Source of the DNA: Candidatus Jorgensenbacteria bacterium
Lineage (GTDB): Bacteria > Patescibacteriota > Minisyncoccia > UBA6257 > GWB1-50-10
Length of the DNA: 64,000 nt
Direction: 5' to 3'
Assembly (NCBI GenBank): GCA_030648515.1
Contig: JAUSHK010000005.1
Location: 48,383 to 112,382, forward strand
Under the pieces are notes generated by a model. That model saw only the letters and a list, made by a program, of their open reading frames with translations, made no database searches and had not been told where the DNA came from. Below are positions 2,767 through 49,378 of this stretch, piece by piece. The stretch's first letter is position 1. Every line of letters starts with the position of its first letter. The position numbers and the translations under genes are program-made.

Positions 2767-3144
2767 TTATTTTTTCCAGTACGCTTTGAAATTTTCAACT
2801 TCGGATACCAGCGTTTCTGCTGACTGTCCCGCGTATCGAATGGCTTTGTCGTCTATATATATCCACGCCACCGGTTTTCCGGGGTTTTCTCCCTGCATTT
2901 CCGGATTATGATTAATGAAATCAAAAGGAATTGAGAATTTCTCGCAATATTTTCTGATAAATTCATCCCCGCGCGTTGAATATATGAGAATCCTGAATCC
3001 TTTTTCTTTCAACAAACGCATTGCTTTTACCGTTTCCGTTACCGGTTCCTGAACGTCGCTGTGCGACACAAACCCGTTGTATTGCGCGATTGTTCCGTCA
3101 AAATCAAAAGCTATAATTCTTCCCTTTTTTATTGTTTGTTCCAT
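2767..3144 (-). CDS. Small HAD-superfamily hydrolase (phosphatase-like)
   Basis: N-terminal DxDGT motif (IIAFDFDGTIAQ), plus downstream STRG and IYIDDK motifs typical of the HAD fold. 125 aa. Confidence 0.55.
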   Translation of the reverse strand: MEQTIKKGRIIAFDFDGTIAQYNGFVSHSDVQEPVTETVKAMRLLKEKGFRILIYSTRGDEFIRKYCEKFSIPFDFINHNPEMQGENPGKPVAWIYIDDKAIRYAGQSAETLVSEVENFKAYWKK

Positions 3145-3157
3145 GCAGCAAATAAAA

Positions 3158-3892
3158 CTACATCTCCGCTTCTTTTCTTAAGATATAGTTGGTGGACATA
3201 TCACCGCCGTCAACTGTAATAGTAGTGCCGTTTATATAACTTGATTTATCAGAGAGCAAAAAACTTACAACTTGAGCGATTTCCTCGTAGGTGCCGACTC
3301 TCTTAAGCGGATTAAGCGACGCGACTTCCTTAAGCAGTTCTTTCGGAGCTCCCATGCCGCCACCTATCCACCCGGGGGCAATGGCGTTCGTTCGTATCTT
3401 TTTCGGAGCGAGAATATTAGCAAGGCTTTGGGTTATATTAATGAGGGCTGCTTTGCTTGCGGAATAAGCCATGCCTGAAAAAGAACCAATCATGCCGTCG
3501 GTGCTTGAAATATTTACAATTGAAGCATCTTTTTCAAGATTTTCTTTTAAACCCTCTATTAATAAAAGCGGGGCATTTAAGTTAATCTCAAAAGTTTTTT
3601 CCCATACTTTCATATCAAAATTATTAAGGTCAACATCAATAAAAACGCCCGCACTATTCACGATTCCCTTGAAACGAAATTTGCCTAATTTTTGTATTAA
3701 AGCTTCTGTATTTTTCCTGTTGCTGAAATCACATTGAAACATCTCAATGTTTTTAAGTTTATTCTTGAGCTTCTCGGCTTCTTCTTTTCCCGTGTTATAA
3801 ATTCCATACACAAAATAACCCTCTTTTACCAAAAGTTGCGCGACTGCCTTACCCATTCCACTTGATACGCCGGTTACGAGAATGTTTTTCAT
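3158..3892 (-). CDS. Short-chain dehydrogenase/reductase (SDR) family oxidoreductase
   Basis: TGVSSGMGKA glycine-rich NAD(P)-binding motif at the N-terminus; catalytic YxxxK (YSASK). 244 aa. Confidence 0.8.
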   Translation of the reverse strand: MKNILVTGVSSGMGKAVAQLLVKEGYFVYGIYNTGKEEAEKLKNKLKNIEMFQCDFSNRKNTEALIQKLGKFRFKGIVNSAGVFIDVDLNNFDMKVWEKTFEINLNAPLLLIEGLKENLEKDASIVNISSTDGMIGSFSGMAYSASKAALINITQSLANILAPKKIRTNAIAPGWIGGGMGAPKELLKEVASLNPLKRVGTYEEIAQVVSFLLSDKSSYINGTTITVDGGDMSTNYILRKEAEM

Positions 3893-3917
3893 AAGTTGAT
3901 TATAGCAATTTCTCGTA

Positions 3918-4382
3918 TTATAAAATTTTAAGTTCGGAGAGCCATTCTTTCCAGACGGGTTCTATGCCGGGCGATGATTGCCACTCCGTTTCGCTTATTT
4001 TCCCCAAAATATAGTTTTCTGTTCTCTCGGCAAGTTTGCGAATTTGCTCTTTTGTATACCAGCCGTATTGCTTGGTTTCACTTGGGCTTGCTGTAACCTT
4101 CCCTTCTGTTTTCACTTCAAAGATTTTCCAGTAATGCCATGTGCCGTCCTCGCGCCTGCAAGGATTTTCTTTTCTGCCTTCGGCAAGTAATGTAATTTTT
4201 TTGGCATTGAGACCAACTTCTTCTTCAACTTCCTTCCGTGCCGCATCTTCAAAAGACCCATGGTCGTCAATGTGGCCGGCGGGAGGAGCAAAACCATACG
4301 GCGGCTTGCGCCGTTCAATAAGAAGTAGTTTGTCGCCATCCCAAATAAGCATTCCGACGCTTTTATGGTCGCAAATCGCCAT
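3918..4382 (-). CDS. Nudix hydrolase
   Basis: Nudix-box-like segment GHIDDHGSFEDAARKEVEEEVGL. 154 aa. Its stop lies 1 nt from the start of the upstream gene (4384), suggesting translational coupling. Confidence 0.6.
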   Translation of the reverse strand: MAICDHKSVGMLIWDGDKLLLIERRKPPYGFAPPAGHIDDHGSFEDAARKEVEEEVGLNAKKITLLAEGRKENPCRREDGTWHYWKIFEVKTEGKVTASPSETKQYGWYTKEQIRKLAERTENYILGKISETEWQSSPGIEPVWKEWLSELKIL

Positions 4383-4383
4383 A

Positions 4384-4791
4384 TTACGCTATTTTTGTAA
4401 GGTCGCCGTTCAGTACGACTGGCTCAACTGTCAGTATCTCGTCCTCAATATATTTTTGGCTGGGAATTGCGTTTAATAGATAGATTTTCTTATCCCGATA
4501 GTGCGCGAAACCAACTTCAAGAAACGTGTTTGCCCCGATGTAATTTTCAACTTCCCCTTTCGTAATATTCATGACAAGAATGGCGTCTGATTTTTCTATT
4601 TTATCCATGTGTTCCGATATAAGCCCCAATTTCTTTTTTGCCTGAACCCGGCCGGCATTATCCTTAGACCAATAATCAACGCCGTCGGCTTTTATTGGCA
4701 TGAGAACTGTGTGGCCCATTTGCTCAAGCTTACCTTTCACTCCGAGCATTTGGTCAAAGAATTTTATAGATCCGCAAACGGTAATAGTCAT
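4384..4791 (-). CDS. Nucleoside 2-deoxyribosyltransferase-like / LOG-like (SLOG-type Rossmann) small protein, paralog 1
   Basis: 135 aa. Motif NYIGANTFLEVGFA...KKIYLLN resembles the GxT(A/F)xExG(Y/F)A glycine-rich site of the NDT/LOG clan. Clear paralog of 16002..16412. Confidence 0.5.
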   Translation of the reverse strand: MTITVCGSIKFFDQMLGVKGKLEQMGHTVLMPIKADGVDYWSKDNAGRVQAKKKLGLISEHMDKIEKSDAILVMNITKGEVENYIGANTFLEVGFAHYRDKKIYLLNAIPSQKYIEDEILTVEPVVLNGDLTKIA

Positions 4792-4829
4792 GTTTGTATT
4801 ATACTTTATTTTTCGTTTTATTCTATGAC

Positions 4830-5879
4830 TTATACGGTCTGAACTGGCCCGCCTTGATTTGTGCGGTTCAATTTGCGCGAGCGCTGGTACGCTTCAATCT
4901 CACTTAATTTAAGCGCTGTTGTGGTGTTTCCTGTGCGCACATAGAAGTGTTCGTCATTGTCTGTTTTTAAATATACCGGCATTCTACTTTTAAGCGTCTG
5001 GACGACGCAGAGGTTTGTTTGCCCAGCGCTCGGAAACCATAGTTTCACAAGGTGGCGGAACTCCGGTCCGATCATGACGTTAAATACTTGCGTGAAATGA
5101 TTCTCAAATCCGTCGCTGTTCTGATGCTGGAGTGTTTGGTAATCATTCATAAGCCCAATCGGTTCCCGCGCGTTGTTTACGCCTATCACAAGCTCGCCGC
5201 CGTGCGAGTTCAAAAACGCGGCAACCGTTTTCATTGCCGCTTTTTCTAAATCGCGGTTCATTTTGCCGCTATGGTGGTCAAAACGAAGAGATGATTTGAA
5301 TTCAAGGTGCTCGTGCTCTTCAGTTCCAAGAAGTTTCTGCACGTCGGGCGCGGTAAAGCTGTCCCGTTCCGGGTTTATGCATTCTTCTATCGTCTCCACG
5401 AGTTCATCCGGCCGCGAAACATCTGCGATGACAAATGCCGTACCGGAAGAATCGTCTTTAATGCGAATTGAGCCATAATGAAACAGTTTCCCTGGTAGAT
5501 TAGAAGAAACGGTTGCCGTCATGGATTTTTTGAGTGAAACCGCAGTATTCTTTTTCAAGAAGACGCCGCGCTGATGCGAAATAATCCCAGGGCCCGCGGA
5601 ATATGACTCAAAATACCAGCGCGCGAACGCGTAGATAGTAACAAAAAGCTGTACGCCAGCAAGAAATATGAGCTTCGCAATGCTGTATGGAAGCACGCCG
5701 GAAAAGAAGAACGACTGCGTGTAGAGGTCGTATTTGTAGCTGCCGCCGCCGAGGACGAGGAGATATGCGATGAATATAAGAAGCTCTATCCCGATAAACG
5801 TTCGGACGAGAATAAATGGGCTTTTTTTGATTGTTACTACAGTATCGCCCAAACTCTTCATGTATCTAGTGTAAAACAA
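4830..5879 (-). CDS. Membrane protein with N-terminal bPH_2-like (YdbT-like) membrane domain and C-terminal AlbA_2 (Schlafen-type putative nucleic-acid-binding) domain
   Basis: Two TM helices, then a PH-like segment (SYSAGPGIISHQRGVFLKK...HYGSIRI). The C-terminal region EHEHLEFKSSL...MKTVAAFLNSHGGELVIGVNN...HFYVRTGNTTTALKLSEIEAY matches the AlbA_2 signature (E..LEFK ... AFaN..GG.l.iGv). Confidence 0.5.
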   Translation of the reverse strand: MFYTRYMKSLGDTVVTIKKSPFILVRTFIGIELLIFIAYLLVLGGGSYKYDLYTQSFFFSGVLPYSIAKLIFLAGVQLFVTIYAFARWYFESYSAGPGIISHQRGVFLKKNTAVSLKKSMTATVSSNLPGKLFHYGSIRIKDDSSGTAFVIADVSRPDELVETIEECINPERDSFTAPDVQKLLGTEEHEHLEFKSSLRFDHHSGKMNRDLEKAAMKTVAAFLNSHGGELVIGVNNAREPIGLMNDYQTLQHQNSDGFENHFTQVFNVMIGPEFRHLVKLWFPSAGQTNLCVVQTLKSRMPVYLKTDNDEHFYVRTGNTTTALKLSEIEAYQRSRKLNRTNQGGPVQTV

Positions 5880-5962
5880 AATTTAATTGGAGCAAAGGAA
5901 GATGCGACTTCTTCTTTGTGAACGAAGCTTTATTGCAAAAAGGCTAATTTTGATTTTTATGA

Positions 5963-6697
5963 TTAGTTTTGTAAGTCTTGTTGATGCGTCTTGGTTTCTG
6001 GTGTTTGAAGATTAATAATTTCTTTGTTGTTAGAATTTTTTTGCTCTATCTGTTGTTGTTTGATTTTAGTTTTATCTTCTGCTCTTTTTGAAAATAATGA
6101 CGACAAATCTTTGTTATGCAGCCATTCTTGGGGCGCTGGTATTATTTGATTTTTAAAACTCTCAGTAGTTTTATCTTCTAATGTCTGAATCATCATTCCA
6201 ATAATCATTAAAAAATTACCTCTTGGATTAATCATTTCCGACACTATGCGCCCCCTAGATCCTTCCGGAAATAAATTTCTACCTTTCTTGTATACTTCTG
6301 ATACGCTCTGAGAAGACGAGACTAGACTTTCTAGAAAATCTTTTATTCTTCCGGTATTAAAACTTGAGCCATAAACATTATGCGCAAAGTCATTTCTCAT
6401 TTTTCTTATTATGTTAAAATTTTGTGTAAATTTTGCACTTATTAAGCCAAGTCTAAATGCTAACTGAATCTTCGAATTAAATGTTGACACTGGCGCGTTA
6501 TTTTGATCAAATAGTTCATCCTCACTAGTCGTCGTAGGAGCCAAGTGAGATTTCAAGAGGGTGGTTAAAGTATTTTCTAATAATGATACCGATAATATAG
6601 CAGCAGCACGATCTGTTTCTTTTGAAAATTCATTTATAAGAAAGTCCCCTTTTTCCCACGTTGTTTCATGTGAAGATTGGTTATTTGCGTTTTCCAT
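5963..6697 (-). CDS. HEPN-superfamily protein, MtlR/Abi-like (Rx4H motif RNDFAH) with Q/K/N-rich low-complexity C-terminal tail
   Basis: Segment FNSKIQLAFRLGLISAKFTQNFNIIRKMRNDFAHN carries the HEPN Rx4-6H signature. The gene sits in a strongly AT-rich stretch (5880-6760), unlike its flanks. Confidence 0.5.
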   Translation of the reverse strand: MENANNQSSHETTWEKGDFLINEFSKETDRAAAILSVSLLENTLTTLLKSHLAPTTTSEDELFDQNNAPVSTFNSKIQLAFRLGLISAKFTQNFNIIRKMRNDFAHNVYGSSFNTGRIKDFLESLVSSSQSVSEVYKKGRNLFPEGSRGRIVSEMINPRGNFLMIIGMMIQTLEDKTTESFKNQIIPAPQEWLHNKDLSSLFSKRAEDKTKIKQQQIEQKNSNNKEIINLQTPETKTHQQDLQN

Positions 6698-6755
6698 GTT
6701 TTTATTTTATTATTTTAGTACTTCTAAATCTTTTTTGATACTACATTTATCCTAA

Positions 6756-7673
6756 TTAGCCTCTACTCAACCAATCAGCTATCGTTTTTGCCAGCTGTTT
6801 CTCGCGGCCCTTAAATCCGTGGTCCGCGCCTTTAATAATCCGGTAATCTAGTTTCGGTTGATACTGTTTCAGTATCTCAACAATTTTTGGCACATTGCCC
6901 CAGGCGTACTGGTCTTTATCTCCGTATACGACAAGGGATTGTTTTTTGATGGATTTGAAATACCGAAAGAGCGGTTTTGTTGAAAGCTTCTTTTTCCGAA
7001 GAACTTCGTAGAACGGAAATGTGTTATAGTCCCCATCTGGATTTGCTGCGTCATAAAATCCAGCGTAGGAAAATATTTCGTCAGGCAGAATTTCTTTGAT
7101 AATTTCTCCGCCTCGCTTGGCTTTTATTTTTCTTTTGGCCTCGGAGAGAAGTCTTGAGAACCTGGATTTTCCCAATATATCGTAATAGATGCCGGTATCG
7201 TCGCCTCCGCAAAGAAGAACGTATTTTTTGATGTCGTTTTTCGGCTTATAGAAGTTGTAAACGCAAATCTTATTCGCGCCCGTTGAAGTGCCGATGAGAT
7301 AAAACTCGCGATAGCCCCGTTCTTTAAGAAAAGAAATAGCTCCATCAATATCAGGCACGCATTCTTTTATTTTTTCGTACGCCATTCCAAACAGTTTCCG
7401 TTCATCTTTATTACCACGCTTTACATAAAGATTTTTAATAACGTGCGCTCCCCTATTATTGAAATAAAGGGTTGAAATATTTTTCTCGGCCCAGGCGGAA
7501 GCGAGTATGCTATTTTTTGCTTTGTTGTAAAAAACCGACGAGCCCATACCATGCAAACAGATAGCGACGGCTTTTCCCTTTTTCGCTTTGTATAAAAGCC
7601 CGGGAAGCGTAAGCCCGTCTTTTGTTTGAAATTCCACAAATTCCGGCTGTACGGCGGTGTTTTTCATACTCAA
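6756..7673 (-). CDS. Alpha/beta-hydrolase fold protein (esterase/dienelactone-hydrolase-like)
   Basis: Nucleophile elbow GTSTG (GxSxG). HGMGSS near the N-terminus. 305 aa. Confidence 0.55.
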   Translation of the reverse strand: MSMKNTAVQPEFVEFQTKDGLTLPGLLYKAKKGKAVAICLHGMGSSVFYNKAKNSILASAWAEKNISTLYFNNRGAHVIKNLYVKRGNKDERKLFGMAYEKIKECVPDIDGAISFLKERGYREFYLIGTSTGANKICVYNFYKPKNDIKKYVLLCGGDDTGIYYDILGKSRFSRLLSEAKRKIKAKRGGEIIKEILPDEIFSYAGFYDAANPDGDYNTFPFYEVLRKKKLSTKPLFRYFKSIKKQSLVVYGDKDQYAWGNVPKIVEILKQYQPKLDYRIIKGADHGFKGREKQLAKTIADWLSRG

Positions 7674-8615: not shown

Positions 8616-9503
8616 TTATTTTGTATAGTATCCAAAAAGCGCTTTGATGCCGGCCAAATTTCGCTCCCACTCAACCGTCTCGTGAGTTTTAAGCTCAACT
8701 GTGATTGCCGGAATGTTGATTGAAGCAAGCCACCCTTCGGCGTCGCCCGTAATCTCGTAGGCGCTAAAAGAATCAACTGCCGGATATCCCGACGCGTGCG
8801 AATACGCCCCAATAATTTCAAGCGTCTTCGGAAGAATTCCTCTTTCGCATTCTGACGCGTACACGGCGTTTGACTGGCTGTGCCAAAACACGACAGCGGC
8901 CGGATTATTTTTAAAAACAAAATCACGAATAGCACGAGTTTCCGGCTCGGAGAACGGCGCCGTCCCCGCGCTTACAACATTTCCCTGCCACATGCTTTCC
9001 GGCTTCCACTTACAATCAAAATTGCGATTCAGGTCAACTTTATGCGCGTTGAAGCGCCCCGGCGCTTCGGAGACGCCCACGGGCACATCTGGGGCGGTGA
9101 AGCGCCCTTCCTTGCCGATTACTTTATATACCCCATCAGGATTAGCGGACGGAATCACGGCAACGGTCAAATTCGCGGGAATGGCTTTTGGATTAGCGTT
9201 AAGATAATCCATAAATGCGTACGCTAAAAGCACGCTGTTCCACTCATAGCCGCCGTGCACGCCGCCCACAAATGCCAGAAGCGTTTTTCCGCTTCCGTAT
9301 GTATACGATTCGATTTGTCGGCCTTCCACTGATAAACCTATTACGTTGCGTTTTGGAGCGTAATTTTCTGTTTTAACCGGCACTATCGTTACTGGCTTTG
9401 GCGTGCTGCCGCTTCGCAATAAAATAAATATAAGCAAACCGACGCCGAGCACGGCAATAACAATGGCCGCAATGACACGTTTAGTCCGCAAGAGGCTTAC
9501 CAC
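8616..9503 (-). CDS. M14-family zinc carboxypeptidase-like protein, membrane anchored (tandem paralog A)
   Basis: N-terminal TM; motifs VGGVHGGYEWN, NPDG and DLNRNFDC typical of M14 / gamma-D-Glu-DAP peptidase-like enzymes. Paralogous to 9507..10427. Confidence 0.6.
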   Translation of the reverse strand: MVSLLRTKRVIAAIVIAVLGVGLLIFILLRSGSTPKPVTIVPVKTENYAPKRNVIGLSVEGRQIESYTYGSGKTLLAFVGGVHGGYEWNSVLLAYAFMDYLNANPKAIPANLTVAVIPSANPDGVYKVIGKEGRFTAPDVPVGVSEAPGRFNAHKVDLNRNFDCKWKPESMWQGNVVSAGTAPFSEPETRAIRDFVFKNNPAAVVFWHSQSNAVYASECERGILPKTLEIIGAYSHASGYPAVDSFSAYEITGDAEGWLASINIPAITVELKTHETVEWERNLAGIKALFGYYTK

Positions 9504-9506
9504 AAA

Positions 9507-10427
9507 TTATTTGGCGTAGTATTTAAGCAAGGCTTCAATGCCAGCCTGATTTTTACTCCATTCAGTATCCGTATGATTTTTAAGAAGAACGCTTATTGCG
9601 GGAATGTTGCTTTTCGCGAGCCAATTTACCATATCGCCGGTTATTTCGTAGAAGTTAAAACTCTCGTAGGCGGGGTACCCCGAGGCATCCGCAAATTTTT
9701 TAGTAATCGTGTTCGTCTCCGGCAAAACACCATTGTGACAGTTTGACGCGAATACACCATTTGCCGCGCTATACCAAACCACTACTGCTTTTGGTTTTTG
9801 AGTTTCAATATAATTTTTAATCGCGAGGCTTTCTGGCTCAGAAAATACAGAGCTTCCACCGCTCACTTTCGTATTCTGCCATTTTGCGCTTTCTTGCCAG
9901 TCACAGTCAAAATTGCGATTGAGGTCAACATTGTTCGCGTTAAAACGGCCTGATGTCTGGATGGCTTGCGACGATGACACCTGAGATGCTGTAAACCGCC
10001 CTGTCGTGCCGATAACTTTATAGAGTCCGTCCGGATTCAAAACCGGTATGACAGTTGCTCTCACATTTGCCGGAATGATGGTCGGGTTCGCCTTCAAATA
10101 ATCCATCGCTTCGTAAGCGACAAGCGCCGTATTCCATTCATATCCGCCGTGTATTCCGCCGACAAACAAAATCTCCGCGTCACCAGTACCATAATGATAC
10201 GCGGTAATATCGCGGCTCTCTACTGATTTTCCAATTACCGATTCTCCCTTGTTTGTAACCGACGTTTCGCCAGTTTGGGCGTCATCCTGCGACTGGGTTA
10301 CGCTGCCTGATATATTCGCATCCTGAACTTTCCCAACATCCGCCGTATTAAATGAGCCACGAATGACAAAATACGCACCGGCGCCAATGATAACCACGAC
10401 TAGAAACACGATGATGATGTTTTTCAT
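9507..10427 (-). CDS. M14-family zinc carboxypeptidase-like protein, membrane anchored (tandem paralog B)
   Basis: Same motifs (VGGIHGGYEWN, NPDG, DLNRNFDC). 4-nt spacing to paralog A. Confidence 0.6.
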   Translation of the reverse strand: MKNIIIVFLVVVIIGAGAYFVIRGSFNTADVGKVQDANISGSVTQSQDDAQTGETSVTNKGESVIGKSVESRDITAYHYGTGDAEILFVGGIHGGYEWNTALVAYEAMDYLKANPTIIPANVRATVIPVLNPDGLYKVIGTTGRFTASQVSSSQAIQTSGRFNANNVDLNRNFDCDWQESAKWQNTKVSGGSSVFSEPESLAIKNYIETQKPKAVVVWYSAANGVFASNCHNGVLPETNTITKKFADASGYPAYESFNFYEITGDMVNWLAKSNIPAISVLLKNHTDTEWSKNQAGIEALLKYYAK

Positions 10428-13656: not shown

Positions 13657-14919
13657 ATGGAAACTAAAAGAGATTTTTATGGGCTCGGTATCGCGCCTGG
13701 CATTCTCCAAGTTCTTACCAAACTTGGTTTTAATACGCCAACTCCGATTCAAGAGCAGGCTATTCCAATCGCGATTGAAGGCAAGGATTTAGTGGGTGTT
13801 GCCCAAACCGGCACCGGGAAGACCCTCGCCTTTGGCATACCCTTGATTCAGCATGTCCTTCGTGGCGCTGGCACAGGTCTTGTTATCGTACCCACGCGCG
13901 AGCTCGCCCTGCAGATTGACGAGACCTTCCGCGGAGTCGGTACGCCGCTTAATTTGAGAACTGCTGCTCTTATCGGCGGGGAATCCATTTCCAGGCAAAT
14001 TCGGGACCTCCATCGCAGCCCGCAGGTTATTATCGGTACGCCTGGCCGGATTCTTGACCATCTCGCGCAAAGAACGCTTTCTCTTCAAAAAATAAGCATA
14101 TTGGTTCTTGATGAAGCCGATAGGATTTTGGATATGGGTTTTGCTCCCCAGTTGAAACGCATTCTTTCTGCTTTGCCGCGTAATCGGCAGACGATGCTGT
14201 TTTCTGCGACAATGCCGGAACAAATCATTAGGATGGCCAAAGAATATTTGAAACTCCCAATTAGGGTTGAAATCGCGCGCTCTGGCACGACCGTGAAGGA
14301 CGTTACTCAGGAATTGTTTTTCGTTCTTCAGGAAGAAAAACCTCGACTTTTGGAAAAAATTCTTCAGGAATATCGGGGTTCAGTACTGGTTTTTTCGCGC
14401 ACGAAACACAGCGCGAAAAAAATAGCCGCCTTGCTGCGCGCTTTAGGGCATACTGCCGCCGAGATTCACAGTAATCGTTCCCTGGGTCAGAGGAAAGAAG
14501 CTCTTGAAGGATTCAAAACTGGAAAATATCGGGTCCTCGCGGCAACGGATATTGCGGCGCGAGGGATTGACGTGACAAATATCGAACTCGTACTGAATTA
14601 CGATTTACCAGAGAATGCCGAAGATTATGTCCATCGGATCGGCCGCACGGCCCGGGCTGGTGTAAGAGGCCACGCCATTTCCTTTGCCCGCCCGAACCAG
14701 AAGAGAGACGTTCAGGCAATCGAAAAACTGATTAAAAAAACATTGCCCGTTTCCAAAATTCCGACTCTTCCCCCGCCCACGCCCTTTAAATTCAAAATAG
14801 AAAGGCCAGAGCGCGGTTTTTTCCCACACGGCCGGAGAAGTTCTTTTCACTCTCGCGGCCGCGGAAATTCTAAATTCGGAGGCAAACGGCCGCATTCCAA
14901 TTTTTTCAGGGGAAAGTAA
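13657..14919 (+). CDS. DEAD-box ATP-dependent RNA helicase with basic RGG-like C-terminal tail
   Basis: Q-motif region, GVAQTGTGKT (Walker A), VLDEAD, SAT, HRIGRTAR. Confidence 0.9.
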   Translation: METKRDFYGLGIAPGILQVLTKLGFNTPTPIQEQAIPIAIEGKDLVGVAQTGTGKTLAFGIPLIQHVLRGAGTGLVIVPTRELALQIDETFRGVGTPLNLRTAALIGGESISRQIRDLHRSPQVIIGTPGRILDHLAQRTLSLQKISILVLDEADRILDMGFAPQLKRILSALPRNRQTMLFSATMPEQIIRMAKEYLKLPIRVEIARSGTTVKDVTQELFFVLQEEKPRLLEKILQEYRGSVLVFSRTKHSAKKIAALLRALGHTAAEIHSNRSLGQRKEALEGFKTGKYRVLAATDIAARGIDVTNIELVLNYDLPENAEDYVHRIGRTARAGVRGHAISFARPNQKRDVQAIEKLIKKTLPVSKIPTLPPPTPFKFKIERPERGFFPHGRRSSFHSRGRGNSKFGGKRPHSNFFRGK

Positions 14920-14949: not shown

Positions 14950-15912
14950 CTATTTTTCTGACTTAATAACGTTCAAGATTTTTTCCACTTTTTTGATGCT
15001 TTCGGAATCGTCCGTGGAAATCGCGATCGCGTCCGGCTTTATTTCTTTCAGCGCTTTTAATTTTGTCTCAACGGACTTTTTATCCATAAGGTCGCTTTTC
15101 GTGAGAAAAAGATATTCGCGCTTTTCGAGAAGTTTTTTGTTGTAAGCGCCGAGTTCCTTACGGATTATTTCATAATCTTTTTGGATTGAGGCGGACTCCA
15201 CCGAAATCAAATGGAAAAGTATTTTTGTGCGCTCCACGTGCTTCAAGAATTTTATTCCCATGCCTTTGCCCTTGGACGATTCTTCTATGAGTCCGGGGAT
15301 GTCGGCCAGAATAATTTCGTAATAAACGCCAAGATTAGGTTCCAAAGTAGTGAAAGGATAATTCGCCACTTTGCTTTTGGCGTTTGTGAGTTTATTAAGC
15401 AAGCTTGATTTACCTACGTTAGGAAGTCCTACGAAGCCGACATCAGCGATTAGTTTTAATTCGAGGCGAAGCGTAAAATTTTCTCCCTGCAGTCCGTGCT
15501 GGAATTGCTTAGGGGTAGTATTTCTGGACGAACGGAAGTGAAAATTGCCCTTTCCTCCCCTGCCGCCTTTAGCCAGAAGCAGGCGCTCGCCGATTTTTGT
15601 TGTTTCAACTTCTGTCCCGGTCGTCAGATTATGGATTACTGTGCCCACGGGAACCTTCAAAACAAGATCGTCGGCGTCCGCGCCGTCCTTAAATTGCCCT
15701 CTCCCTGGTCCCCCATTCTTTGCTTTAATTTCTTTTTTATATCTAAATTGGCCCAAAGCGTTCAAATCAGAAACACCCTCGCAATAGATGCCACCGCCCT
15801 TGCCGCCGCTCGTGCCCGTCGGCCCCAAACTCATCGAATTCGTATTAAAAGCTACTGCGCCGTTTCCACCGTTACCAGCGGCTACTTTTATAACAACGTC
15901 ATCGATTAACAT
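14950..15912 (-). CDS. obg: GTPase Obg (lacks the long C-terminal extension)
   Basis: Gly-rich Obg fold (GGNGGNGAVAF, GGKGG) followed by G-domain GLPNVGKSSLL. Confidence 0.85.
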   Translation of the reverse strand: MLIDDVVIKVAAGNGGNGAVAFNTNSMSLGPTGTSGGKGGGIYCEGVSDLNALGQFRYKKEIKAKNGGPGRGQFKDGADADDLVLKVPVGTVIHNLTTGTEVETTKIGERLLLAKGGRGGKGNFHFRSSRNTTPKQFQHGLQGENFTLRLELKLIADVGFVGLPNVGKSSLLNKLTNAKSKVANYPFTTLEPNLGVYYEIILADIPGLIEESSKGKGMGIKFLKHVERTKILFHLISVESASIQKDYEIIRKELGAYNKKLLEKREYLFLTKSDLMDKKSVETKLKALKEIKPDAIAISTDDSESIKKVEKILNVIKSEK

Positions 15913-48106: not shown

Positions 48107-49378
48107 TTAGGAAATCGTGTCGTACTCGCGAACTGTGAGTTGAGAATCCACTTGCTTCATAATTTCAAGAGCGACTCCGACAACAATTAAAAGTGCTGCA
48201 CCGCCGACTGTGAATACCTCGAGGCCCGTAAGCATCTGCGTTATGTTTGGGAGAATTGCGATGATACCAAGAAAGATCGCGCCGAAAAACGTTGTCCTGC
48301 GCGTAATCGCAGCAATAACATCCGATGTGGACTGCCCGGGCCTGATTCCTGGGATAAACCCGCCGCTTTGCTGGAGATTTTTTGAAATTTCCTTCGGATC
48401 AAACGTGACCGCCGTGTAGAAATAAGTAAACAAGAACACGAGAACGAAATATATTCCGCTGTATAAAAACTGGTTATTGAAAATCGCCGTAACAATCTCG
48501 TTTAAGCGCAGCGATAGATTGCTTGAAAATACAGAGCTCGCCTGCGCGATAAATTGCGGGAAAAGCAAAATGGAAATTGCAAAGATAATCGGAATCATTC
48601 CGGCTTGGTTCACCTTGAGCGGAAGATATGTTGAAACGCCGCCGTACATTTTATTGCCGCGAACTTGCTTTGCGTATGTTACAGGAACTTTTCGCTCGCC
48701 TTCGTTTACGAAAACCGTCGCAGCTGTAACAATTACTCCCAACACTATAAATATGAGGTATGTCGGAAGCACTGATGGGTTGTAGTTTAAAAACGCGTTT
48801 GCGGCGGTACTGGGAATTGAACTTACAATTCCGGCAAGAATAAGAAGCGATATGCCGTTTCCGATGTTGTATTCAGAGATGAGCTCACCAATCCACATAA
48901 GGAGGAGACTGCCGGCCGTGATGATAATTACGTTTGCTGCGGTGTTAAAGAAGTCCAGACGCGTAACCACGCCCTGCGACATAAGGAGGTTTAAAAAACC
49001 GTATCCTTGGAGTAAAGCGATTGGAACCGTTATCCAGCGAGAATAGCGGTTGAATTTTGCACGGCCTTCTGCGCCCTCTTCGTAGTACGCTTTTTTAAGC
49101 GACGGGAAGATGATGGTCAAAAGCTGCATGATGATTGTTGAAGTAATATACGGGCCCAAGCCAAGCATTATAATGGAGAGGTTATTAAGCCCTCCGCCTG
49201 AGAAAATATTAAGAAAACCGAATAATTGGTTTGATGAGAGAAAGTCTTGGAGACGGATAGCATCAACTCCAGGAATTGGAATTGCCGCTAGAATCCGGAA
49301 CACAACAAGCCACATAATGACCATCAGGACTTTTCTACGCAGATCCGGGATTTTAAAGATTTTTAAGAATTTTTGCAT
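48107..49378 (-). CDS. secY: Preprotein translocase subunit SecY
   Basis: 10-TM profile and position after rplO. 423 aa. Confidence 0.85.
   Translation of the reverse strand: MQKFLKIFKIPDLRRKVLMVIMWLVVFRILAAIPIPGVDAIRLQDFLSSNQLFGFLNIFSGGGLNNLSIIMLGLGPYITSTIIMQLLTIIFPSLKKAYYEEGAEGRAKFNRYSRWITVPIALLQGYGFLNLLMSQGVVTRLDFFNTAANVIIITAGSLLLMWIGELISEYNIGNGISLLILAGIVSSIPSTAANAFLNYNPSVLPTYLIFIVLGVIVTAATVFVNEGERKVPVTYAKQVRGNKMYGGVSTYLPLKVNQAGMIPIIFAISILLFPQFIAQASSVFSSNLSLRLNEIVTAIFNNQFLYSGIYFVLVFLFTYFYTAVTFDPKEISKNLQQSGGFIPGIRPGQSTSDVIAAITRRTTFFGAIFLGIIAILPNITQMLTGLEVFTVGGAALLIVVGVALEIMKQVDSQLTVREYDTIS

Follow-up and report, generated by a model that had tools for sequence, protein, structure and literature searches.

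A membrane hairpin and bacterial PH domain fused to a Schlafen-type AlbA_2 domain: a conserved Patescibacteria family of putative membrane-gated endoribonucleases

The stretch of DNA analysed here (64,000 nucleotides of contig JAUSHK010000005.1 from a Candidatus Jorgensenbacteria bacterium, positions 48,383 to 112,382; called the window below) carries on its minus strand a gene for a protein with two predicted transmembrane (TM) helices, a bacterial PH (bPH) domain and a C-terminal AlbA_2 domain of the Schlafen type. The mechanical open reading frame (ORF) starts at a TTG codon. Since the identical NCBI protein (P0001) begins MKSLGD, and since this annotation and the N-termini of homologues match a downstream ATG and not the TTG, the ATG was taken as the start. 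The gene and its parts are laid out as follows.

4830..5879, minus strand: mechanical ORF of the 2TM-bPH-AlbA_2 gene, 349 residues, TTG at 5879
4830..5861, minus strand: coding sequence of the 2TM-bPH-AlbA_2 protein, 343 residues, ATG at 5861
5610..5819, minus strand: predicted TM hairpin (model helices, hydropathy, positive-inside charge; kept in the PH-less short variants)
5748-5819, minus strand: predicted TM1, residues 15-38; a short loop helix lies between TM1 and TM2
5784-5786, minus strand: TM1 glutamate E26 (343 numbering), present in 188 of 238 relatives
5610-5687, minus strand: predicted TM2, residues 59-84 (model helix and hydropathy)
5376..5606, minus strand: bPH_2 / YdbS-type PH domain, residues 86-162, predicted to be cytoplasmic
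5319..5375, minus strand: linker between the PH and AlbA_2 domains, residues 163-181 (model secondary structure; lower conservation in alignment A1)
4857..5318, minus strand: AlbA_2 / Schlafen-type domain, single lobe, predicted nuclease, residues 182-335
5295..5318, minus strand: E-x4-E-x-K motif EHEHLEFK, with E182, E187 and K189 in the 343 numbering (E188, E193 and K195 in the 349 numbering)
5172..5177, minus strand: Asn-Asn (IGVNN) at the peripheral tandem-Asp position of Schlafens (D248/D249 of SLFN14, 'GVDD')

A preliminary description of this DNA had proposed the same architecture, two TM helices followed by a YdbS/YdbT-like bPH segment and an AlbA_2 domain, and Pfam, the homologues, an AlphaFold2 model, Foldseek and hydropathy all confirm it. 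The motifs it had singled out, EHEHLEFKSSL, AFLNSHGGELVIGVNN and HFYVRTGNTTT, are all found in the sequence. It had also asked for profile matches to both domains. The Pfam search gave SLFN_AlbA_2 (PF04326) with 60.6 bits (cut-off 25.3, E=2.6e-16) at aa 188-323, spanning positions 1-117 of the 118 in the profile, and bPH_2 (PF03703) with 22.3 bits at aa 92-164, barely above its cut-off of 22 (E=1.6e-4) and marginal by itself. The bPH_2 assignment was kept because it is backed by precomputed PF03703 matches in 101 of the best 120 of 685 homologues, by the AlphaFold2 model and by the Foldseek matches to PH structures. The model, built with 35 homologues as input, has a mean predicted local distance difference test score (pLDDT) of 87.2 and a predicted template modelling score (pTM) of 0.71. 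Its first two long helices cover residues 15-38 and 59-84; residues 86-162 fold into a sandwich of six strands followed by a C-terminal helix, and residues 186-335 into an alpha/beta domain. Foldseek matched the C-terminal half to the AlbA_2 domain of SAMD9, to DIP2311 and to SLFN13, SLFN5 and SLFN11, the SAMD9 AlbA_2-DNA structure 7ksp being among the top structural matches, and the middle region to the bacterial PH structures 3hsa, 3b77 and 3dcx. The Pfam score and the fold matches to SAMD9 and the SLFN proteins bear out the assignment of the domain to the Schlafen type. The protein thus has the AlbA_2 fold of the Schlafen / AlbA_2 superfamily and, like YdbS-type proteins, two TM helices that run directly into a bacterial PH domain. 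A direct phmmer search against the PDB gave at best a weak match to SLFN12 (E~0.8). HMMER profile alignments to SLFN14 place the E-x4-E-x-K motif about 8 residues off the phmmer register, and the register used here was taken from the start of the Pfam model (profile position 1 = E188) together with the position of the motif in bacterial Slfns.

Two hydrophobic stretches above 1.6 on the Kyte-Doolittle scale, with centres at aa 28-39 and 67-79, overlap the two model helices. The family-mean net charge is +1.5 at the N-terminus, -0.1 in the loop and +2.3 after TM2. As the positive charge lies at the N-terminus and beyond TM2, this distribution indicates a hairpin with both ends inside (N-in/C-in) and predicted cytoplasmic PH and AlbA_2 domains. 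A cytoplasmic PH domain was also predicted by Xu et al. for membrane PHb families (PMC2817789). At the mid-TM1 position of E26, other relatives have Q, D, S or N; this residue may have to do with the packing of the helices, with oligomerisation or with the sensing of ions or protons.

The fusion had been presented as an unusual one. It is not an isolated case: the 2TM-bPH-AlbA_2 fusion is a widespread conserved family of Patescibacteria. A word-indexed search returned 685 homologous proteins at E<=1e-3, and the best 120 of these are all 318-366 aa long, 50-82% identical and derived from Jorgensen-, Ryan-, Lipton- and Wolfebacteria and from Minisyncoccia. An exhaustive search of 50%-identity representatives gave about 70 clusters of full-length proteins with identities as low as 27%, one of them named Dojkabacteria. 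The scan of one genome per GTDB species gave 75 loci, all in Patescibacteria-type metagenome-assembled genomes (MAGs) with the exception of one labelled Chloroflexota. That locus (L070, JADFQT010000120.1) lies on a 7.7-kb contig and may reflect mis-binning rather than horizontal transfer. One bin (MAG JBGPNL01) holds two full-length copies on different contigs (L020 and L021), which could be paralogues or the product of a mixed bin. A scan of the viral contigs of IMG/VR yielded no relatives. Databases already give members of the family generic annotations. In alignment A1, indels occur at columns 270-285 and 334-345. P0118 has a 16-residue insertion past the IGVxD strand and P0002, the closest relative, a 12-residue insertion in an AlbA_2 loop; these two insertions suggest that the domain can accommodate indels in its surface loops.

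Short variants of about 245-260 aa join a homologous TM hairpin directly to AlbA_2 with no PH domain between them (P0126, P0158, P0166, P0197, P0208 and P0220), and five of the six have the TM1 glutamate. On the evidence of these variants, the hairpin and the nuclease domain form the conserved core, with the hairpin as the obligate partner. As the TM1 glutamate is kept both in most full-length relatives and in the short variants, the sequences suggest that the hairpin does more than hold the protein in place. Elsewhere this AlbA_2 subtype (35-50% identical) forms the C-terminal part of proteins that begin with TIR, type I restriction HsdR, GmrSD_N-like, TPR or beta-propeller domains, and all these relatives of other architecture retain E-x4-E-F-K. 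Some of these fusions, found in other organisms, are of conflict-system type: P0182 and P0204 (TIR_2), P0202 (HsdR, 1149 aa), P0254 (GmrSD_N-like) and P0207 (PQQ beta-propeller).

The catalytic motif is almost without variation. Across 238 aligned relatives, the first Glu of E-x4-E-x-K is present in all, the second in 237 and the Lys in all, and in the window protein the motif (EHEHLEFK) stands where the domain begins, as the E-x4-(E/D)-x-K motif does in prokaryotic Schlafens (pSlfn). Other near-invariant residues are D201, K217, N224, G228, G233, D246, D256 and R315 (349 numbering), which indicate strong constraint on these AlbA_2 positions. In SLFN14, the two Glu bind metals and the Lys touches an RNA phosphate, and conservative substitutions also kill activity (PMC12215978). 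The motif is needed for phage-triggered tRNA cleavage by RorSlfn5 (E15/D20; PMC13056530) and for cA4-triggered tRNA cleavage by CbCash (E17/D22; PMC13462974). Since E-x4-E-x-K is invariant, the conservation suggests that the AlbA_2 domain does not only bind but acts itself as a nuclease effector. At the peripheral tandem-Asp site, the second position is D in 213 relatives, N in 24 and E in one (n=238); the window protein and its closest relative carry Asn-Asn, so the window protein lacks the tandem Asp of mammalian-type Schlafens. In SLFN14, D-to-N changes at the tandem-Asp positions affect tRNA cleavage only moderately (PMC12215978), and 24 of the 238 members share the substitution; for these two reasons Asn-Asn was not read as inactivation.

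Compared with the 82%-identical orthologue at locus L001, the gene has a ratio of nonsynonymous to synonymous substitution rates (dN/dS) of 0.118 overall, with 0.074 for the AlbA_2 domain, 0.16 for the PH domain and 0.14 for the TM hairpin; the two flanking genes have 0.085 and 0.057. On these ratios the gene is under purifying selection in the window lineage and so presumably functional there. A pseudogene or decaying copy, which Asn-Asn might have suggested, was rejected with dN/dS at 0.07-0.16 in every domain and the same substitution in 24 of the 238 members.

The gene is stand-alone, with no conserved partner. The neighbours that the preliminary description had named do adjoin it in the window, but the linkage goes no further: NDT-like, Nudix, SDR and HEPN-like genes were found in 0 of the 75 loci by tblastn with the window neighbour proteins. 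At L001, the closest relative (82% identity), abhydrolase, target and HAD genes are directly consecutive, with 82%, 81% and 86% identity at the DNA level. Against L001, the window has about 880 extra bases on one side of the gene (5886-6763, with the HEPN-like gene) and about 1.7 kb on the other (3144-4830, with the NDT-like, Nudix and SDR genes). Because L001 lacks these genes at the same position, they are lineage-specific indels.

The HEPN-like gene (5963-6697, minus strand), directly upstream of the target, stands out by its low GC content (about 0.32, with about 0.45 in the surroundings); it has the R-x4-H motif 'RNDFAH', and Pfam gives only weak MtlR/DUF4145 matches. In the NDT-like/Nudix/SDR block (3158-4791, minus strand), the Nuc_deoxyrib_tr match is 21 bits, below its cut-off of 28.8, and the Nudix match 72 bits. 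The gaps around the target are 84 bp upstream and 39 bp downstream and the neighbours are co-directional; long co-directional gene arrays are usual in the window. A further segment of about 8.7 kb that is extra with respect to L001 (7674-16433, between the abhydrolase gene and genes matching L001 6517-6934) includes an L,D-transpeptidase-like gene, two tandem M14-type carboxypeptidase-like genes (8616-10427), a VanY-like and a CYTH-like gene, a DEAD-box helicase and Obg; its gene content varies between close relatives. The scan for promoters and terminators around the gene gave nothing beyond the shuffled expectation, and no paralogue (second bPH or AlbA_2 gene) was found within the 64-kb window.

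De novo ORF clustering over the loci found every neighbour family in at most 14 of the 75. Recurrent neighbours are TypA/BipA, M23 peptidase, DEAD-box helicase (nearby in 13 of 75 loci), ABC ATPase, Fmt, Obg, P-type ATPase and PilB. In the Pfam scan of the 134 immediate neighbours from the 75 loci, every family occurs at most six times and the families are housekeeping ones; bPH_2 lies outside the 25 most frequent, so no YdbT-like partner stands out there. PADLOC, run on the same 134, picked up four DEAD-box helicases of housekeeping type through generic helicase models. Parts of a gene order with Obg, DEAD-box helicase, target and M23 recur in deeply diverged loci (L005, L014, L030, L032, L038, L042, L075 and others), and the window itself has Obg (14953-15912) and the helicase (13675-14775) at a distance of 8-10 kb from the target. 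As the DEAD-box gene and the target adjoin in mixed orientations, mostly tail-to-tail, we take this arrangement for core-chromosome synteny and not for an operon or island. The recurrence may mean nothing beyond such synteny, or it may point to a link with RNA metabolism.

We propose, with moderate confidence, that the protein is a stand-alone, single-polypeptide, membrane-gated Schlafen-type endoribonuclease. The N-in/C-in hairpin, with its conserved TM1 glutamate, would anchor it in the cytoplasmic membrane, and the YdbS-type PH domain would lie in the cytoplasm just beneath it. The AlbA_2 domain, if it works as all characterised Schlafen nucleases do, would be a divalent-metal-dependent ribonuclease (RNase) that uses the E-x4-E-x-K site and cuts tRNA or rRNA. 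The TM/PH module would keep the nuclease inactive at the membrane and set its oligomeric state, until a membrane cue (such as envelope or membrane perturbation in phage entry or stress) licenses cleavage and translation is shut down. No partner protein would be needed, and the NDT-like, Nudix, SDR and HEPN-like genes would be unrelated. Bacterial PH domains assemble into pentameric to dodecameric rings, as in the PHb1 and PHb2 crystal structures (PMC2817789), and Schlafen nucleases work as dimers or filaments (PMC13462974); control of assembly by the TM/PH module is suggested by these rings together with the need of Schlafens for dimerisation or higher assembly to clamp RNA. Of prokaryotic Schlafen domains, 97% are fused to presumed sensor domains (PMC13056530), and the N-terminal 2TM and bPH parts provide such a non-nuclease module on the same polypeptide, with a putative sensor role. 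The architecture, the topology signal and the fold are computed, as are the motif invariance, the purifying selection and the missing partner; the RNase activity, its substrate, the trigger and the control exerted by the TM/PH module are what we infer.

Several observations weigh against this proposal. In its evolution and inheritance the gene resembles a core gene, which is atypical for immune effectors: its pairwise identity across genome pairs has a median of about 50%, against 50% for TypA and 47% for Fmt, and the identities of target and core genes are positively correlated overall (Spearman 0.36, p=8e-9). Such inheritance keeps a constitutive housekeeping role in play. No defence-specific gene was found among the 134 immediate neighbours, and neither NCBIfam nor PADLOC gave a match for the protein itself. 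The Asn-Asn pair of the window protein and its closest relative might lower activity, and the ideas on oligomerisation and gating come by extrapolation from other proteins of the PHb and Schlafen kinds.

The same observations lend themselves to a second explanation, possible but in our judgement doubtful, in which the protein is a housekeeping membrane-tethered endoribonuclease for constitutive RNA processing or turnover, an analogue of RNase Y or RNase E with no triggered toxin activity that possibly works with a DEAD-box helicase. A divergence equal to that of core genes would fit it, as would the core synteny in deeply diverged members, the low dN/dS of all domains with the putative sensor included, and the lack of defence neighbours (among the 134 genes) and of phage-borne copies (in IMG/VR). 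It was also noted that the 30.4% of pSlfn genes without defence neighbours may be non-immune (PMC13056530). On the other hand, the prokaryotic Schlafens studied experimentally are all triggered defence effectors, the AlbA_2 subtype is elsewhere fused to TIR, HsdR and GmrSD_N-like modules, and the mixed, mostly tail-to-tail orientation of the DEAD-box gene speaks for synteny rather than an operon. A related suggestion, which we make equally tentatively, is that of a vertically inherited core-genome membrane-tethered RNase of the Patescibacteria clade, either an RNA-turnover enzyme or a translation brake gated by membrane state through the intramembrane glutamate.

Two other readings are both unlikely. 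In one of them the roles are reversed: AlbA_2 would sense nucleic acid and the TM hairpin, with or without a PH ring, would be the effector, acting as a pore or by depolarisation when foreign nucleic acid is met. AlbA_2 domains do bind DNA and RNA, as the SAMD9 structure 7ksp, among the top structural matches, illustrates; Xu et al. proposed membrane PHb proteins as possible pores or transporters via PH rings (PMC2817789), proteins of YdbS/YdbT type function in bacteriocin transport (PMC8657885), and TM1 holds a conserved Glu. A strictly kept Glu pair and Lys over 238 sequences is, however, hard to square with pure binding, given that some binding-only mammalian Schlafens have lost the catalytic residues (PMC13462974), and a two-helix hairpin would be a minimal effector. 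The other, no less improbable, makes the protein a non-catalytic membrane tether for nucleic acid, for instance in DNA or RNA handling during uptake or salvage. The database names 'DNA binding domain-containing' and 'RNA-binding domain-containing' are in line with it, as are the Asn-Asn of the window copy and the NDT-like and Nudix genes next to the target, which a salvage role would suit. It is opposed by the same invariant motif, by the restriction of the salvage-gene adjacency to the window genome (0 of 75 loci), and by the moderate effect of the D-to-N change in SLFN14 (PMC12215978) with the substitution spread over 24 of 238 members. Least credible by far, and very improbable, is the suggestion of the preliminary description that the protein serves as the sensor or anchor in a multi-gene system directed at nucleotides or nucleic acids and formed with the NDT-like/Nudix and HEPN genes. 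The short gaps and shared direction of the window genes are what speaks for it, and co-directional arrays are ordinary in the window. The preliminary description had itself made conserved linkage the test, and as the linkage is missing in all 75 related loci the suggestion is refuted; the abhydrolase-target-HAD order at L001 makes the low-GC HEPN-like gene and the NDT/Nudix/SDR block indels, there is no conserved partner, and the motif points to AlbA_2 as a nuclease effector.

For the proposed membrane-gated endoribonuclease, a membrane-embedded partner would open Schlafen effectors to a class of input that is new for them, the state of the membrane or envelope, and a conserved 'hypothetical/DNA-binding' protein of the poorly understood Patescibacteria would gain a testable function. 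That prokaryotic Schlafens are tRNA-cleaving antiviral effectors which take their specificity from a fused sensor was shown only in 2025-2026. The family could also serve as a concrete case for the non-immune roles of the 30% of pSlfn without defence neighbours (PMC13056530). If it is indeed a core-genome membrane-tethered RNase, it would give the Schlafen fold a non-immune physiological role in reduced-genome bacteria. The protein is not a new kind of system; what is unusual is the membrane input together with the core-gene-like inheritance.

Among known proteins, RNase Y and RNase E are membrane-associated endoribonucleases and offer a functional analogy only, as their catalytic domains (HD/KH, or S1/DNase I-like) are not homologous to AlbA_2. 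The likeness lies in an endoribonuclease at the cytoplasmic face of the membrane, predicted here, and in the DEAD-box gene found near some of the loci. Mammalian SLFN11, SLFN12, SLFN13 and SLFN14 have an N-domain of two lobes, many with a C-terminal helicase, and are soluble, whereas the window protein has one lobe of about 155 aa and no helicase, and is predicted to be membrane-anchored; it thus lacks the two-lobe nuclease domain, with or without helicase, of the mammalian type. Membrane PH proteins of the YdbS / DdE type (PF03703, COG3402) likewise have a 2-TM hairpin followed by a cytoplasmic PH domain, and JGI labels homologues of the window protein 'membrane protein YdbS with pleckstrin-like domain'. 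YdbS-type proteins stop after the PH domain and usually come with a YdbT-type partner gene, in loci for envelope stress or bacteriocins (PMC8657885), whereas here a predicted nuclease domain is added and the Pfam bPH_2 score is just at threshold.

The prokaryotic Schlafens RorSlfn5 and EcoSlfn7 (PMC13056530) and CbCash (PMC13462974) likewise have a single-lobe AlbA_2/Schlafen domain with E-x4-(E/D)-x-K, on one polypeptide with a presumed regulatory non-nuclease module and with no separate antitoxin. Their Schlafen domain is N-terminal, in contrast to its C-terminal place in the window protein. The partners named in the main text of PMC13056530 are HisKinase-like, HTH, DUF5929, Ig-like, DUF262, TBP-like and Csx15, as against a membrane hairpin and PH domain here. 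Two pSlfn papers from 2026 and a third discovery paper mention no membrane or PH fusion in their main texts, the 55-architecture table of PMC13056530 lying outside this scope; in the literature open to search we found no functional description of a membrane-tethered AlbA_2 protein, in agreement with the preliminary description. Defence genes lie near 69.6% of pSlfn (PMC13056530); the present family, judged by the scanned immediate neighbours, does not reside near them and behaves like a core gene in a Patescibacteria clade. With these likenesses and differences, the protein is best filed as a probable new architectural variant of the prokaryotic Schlafen nucleases, an effector class that is already known.

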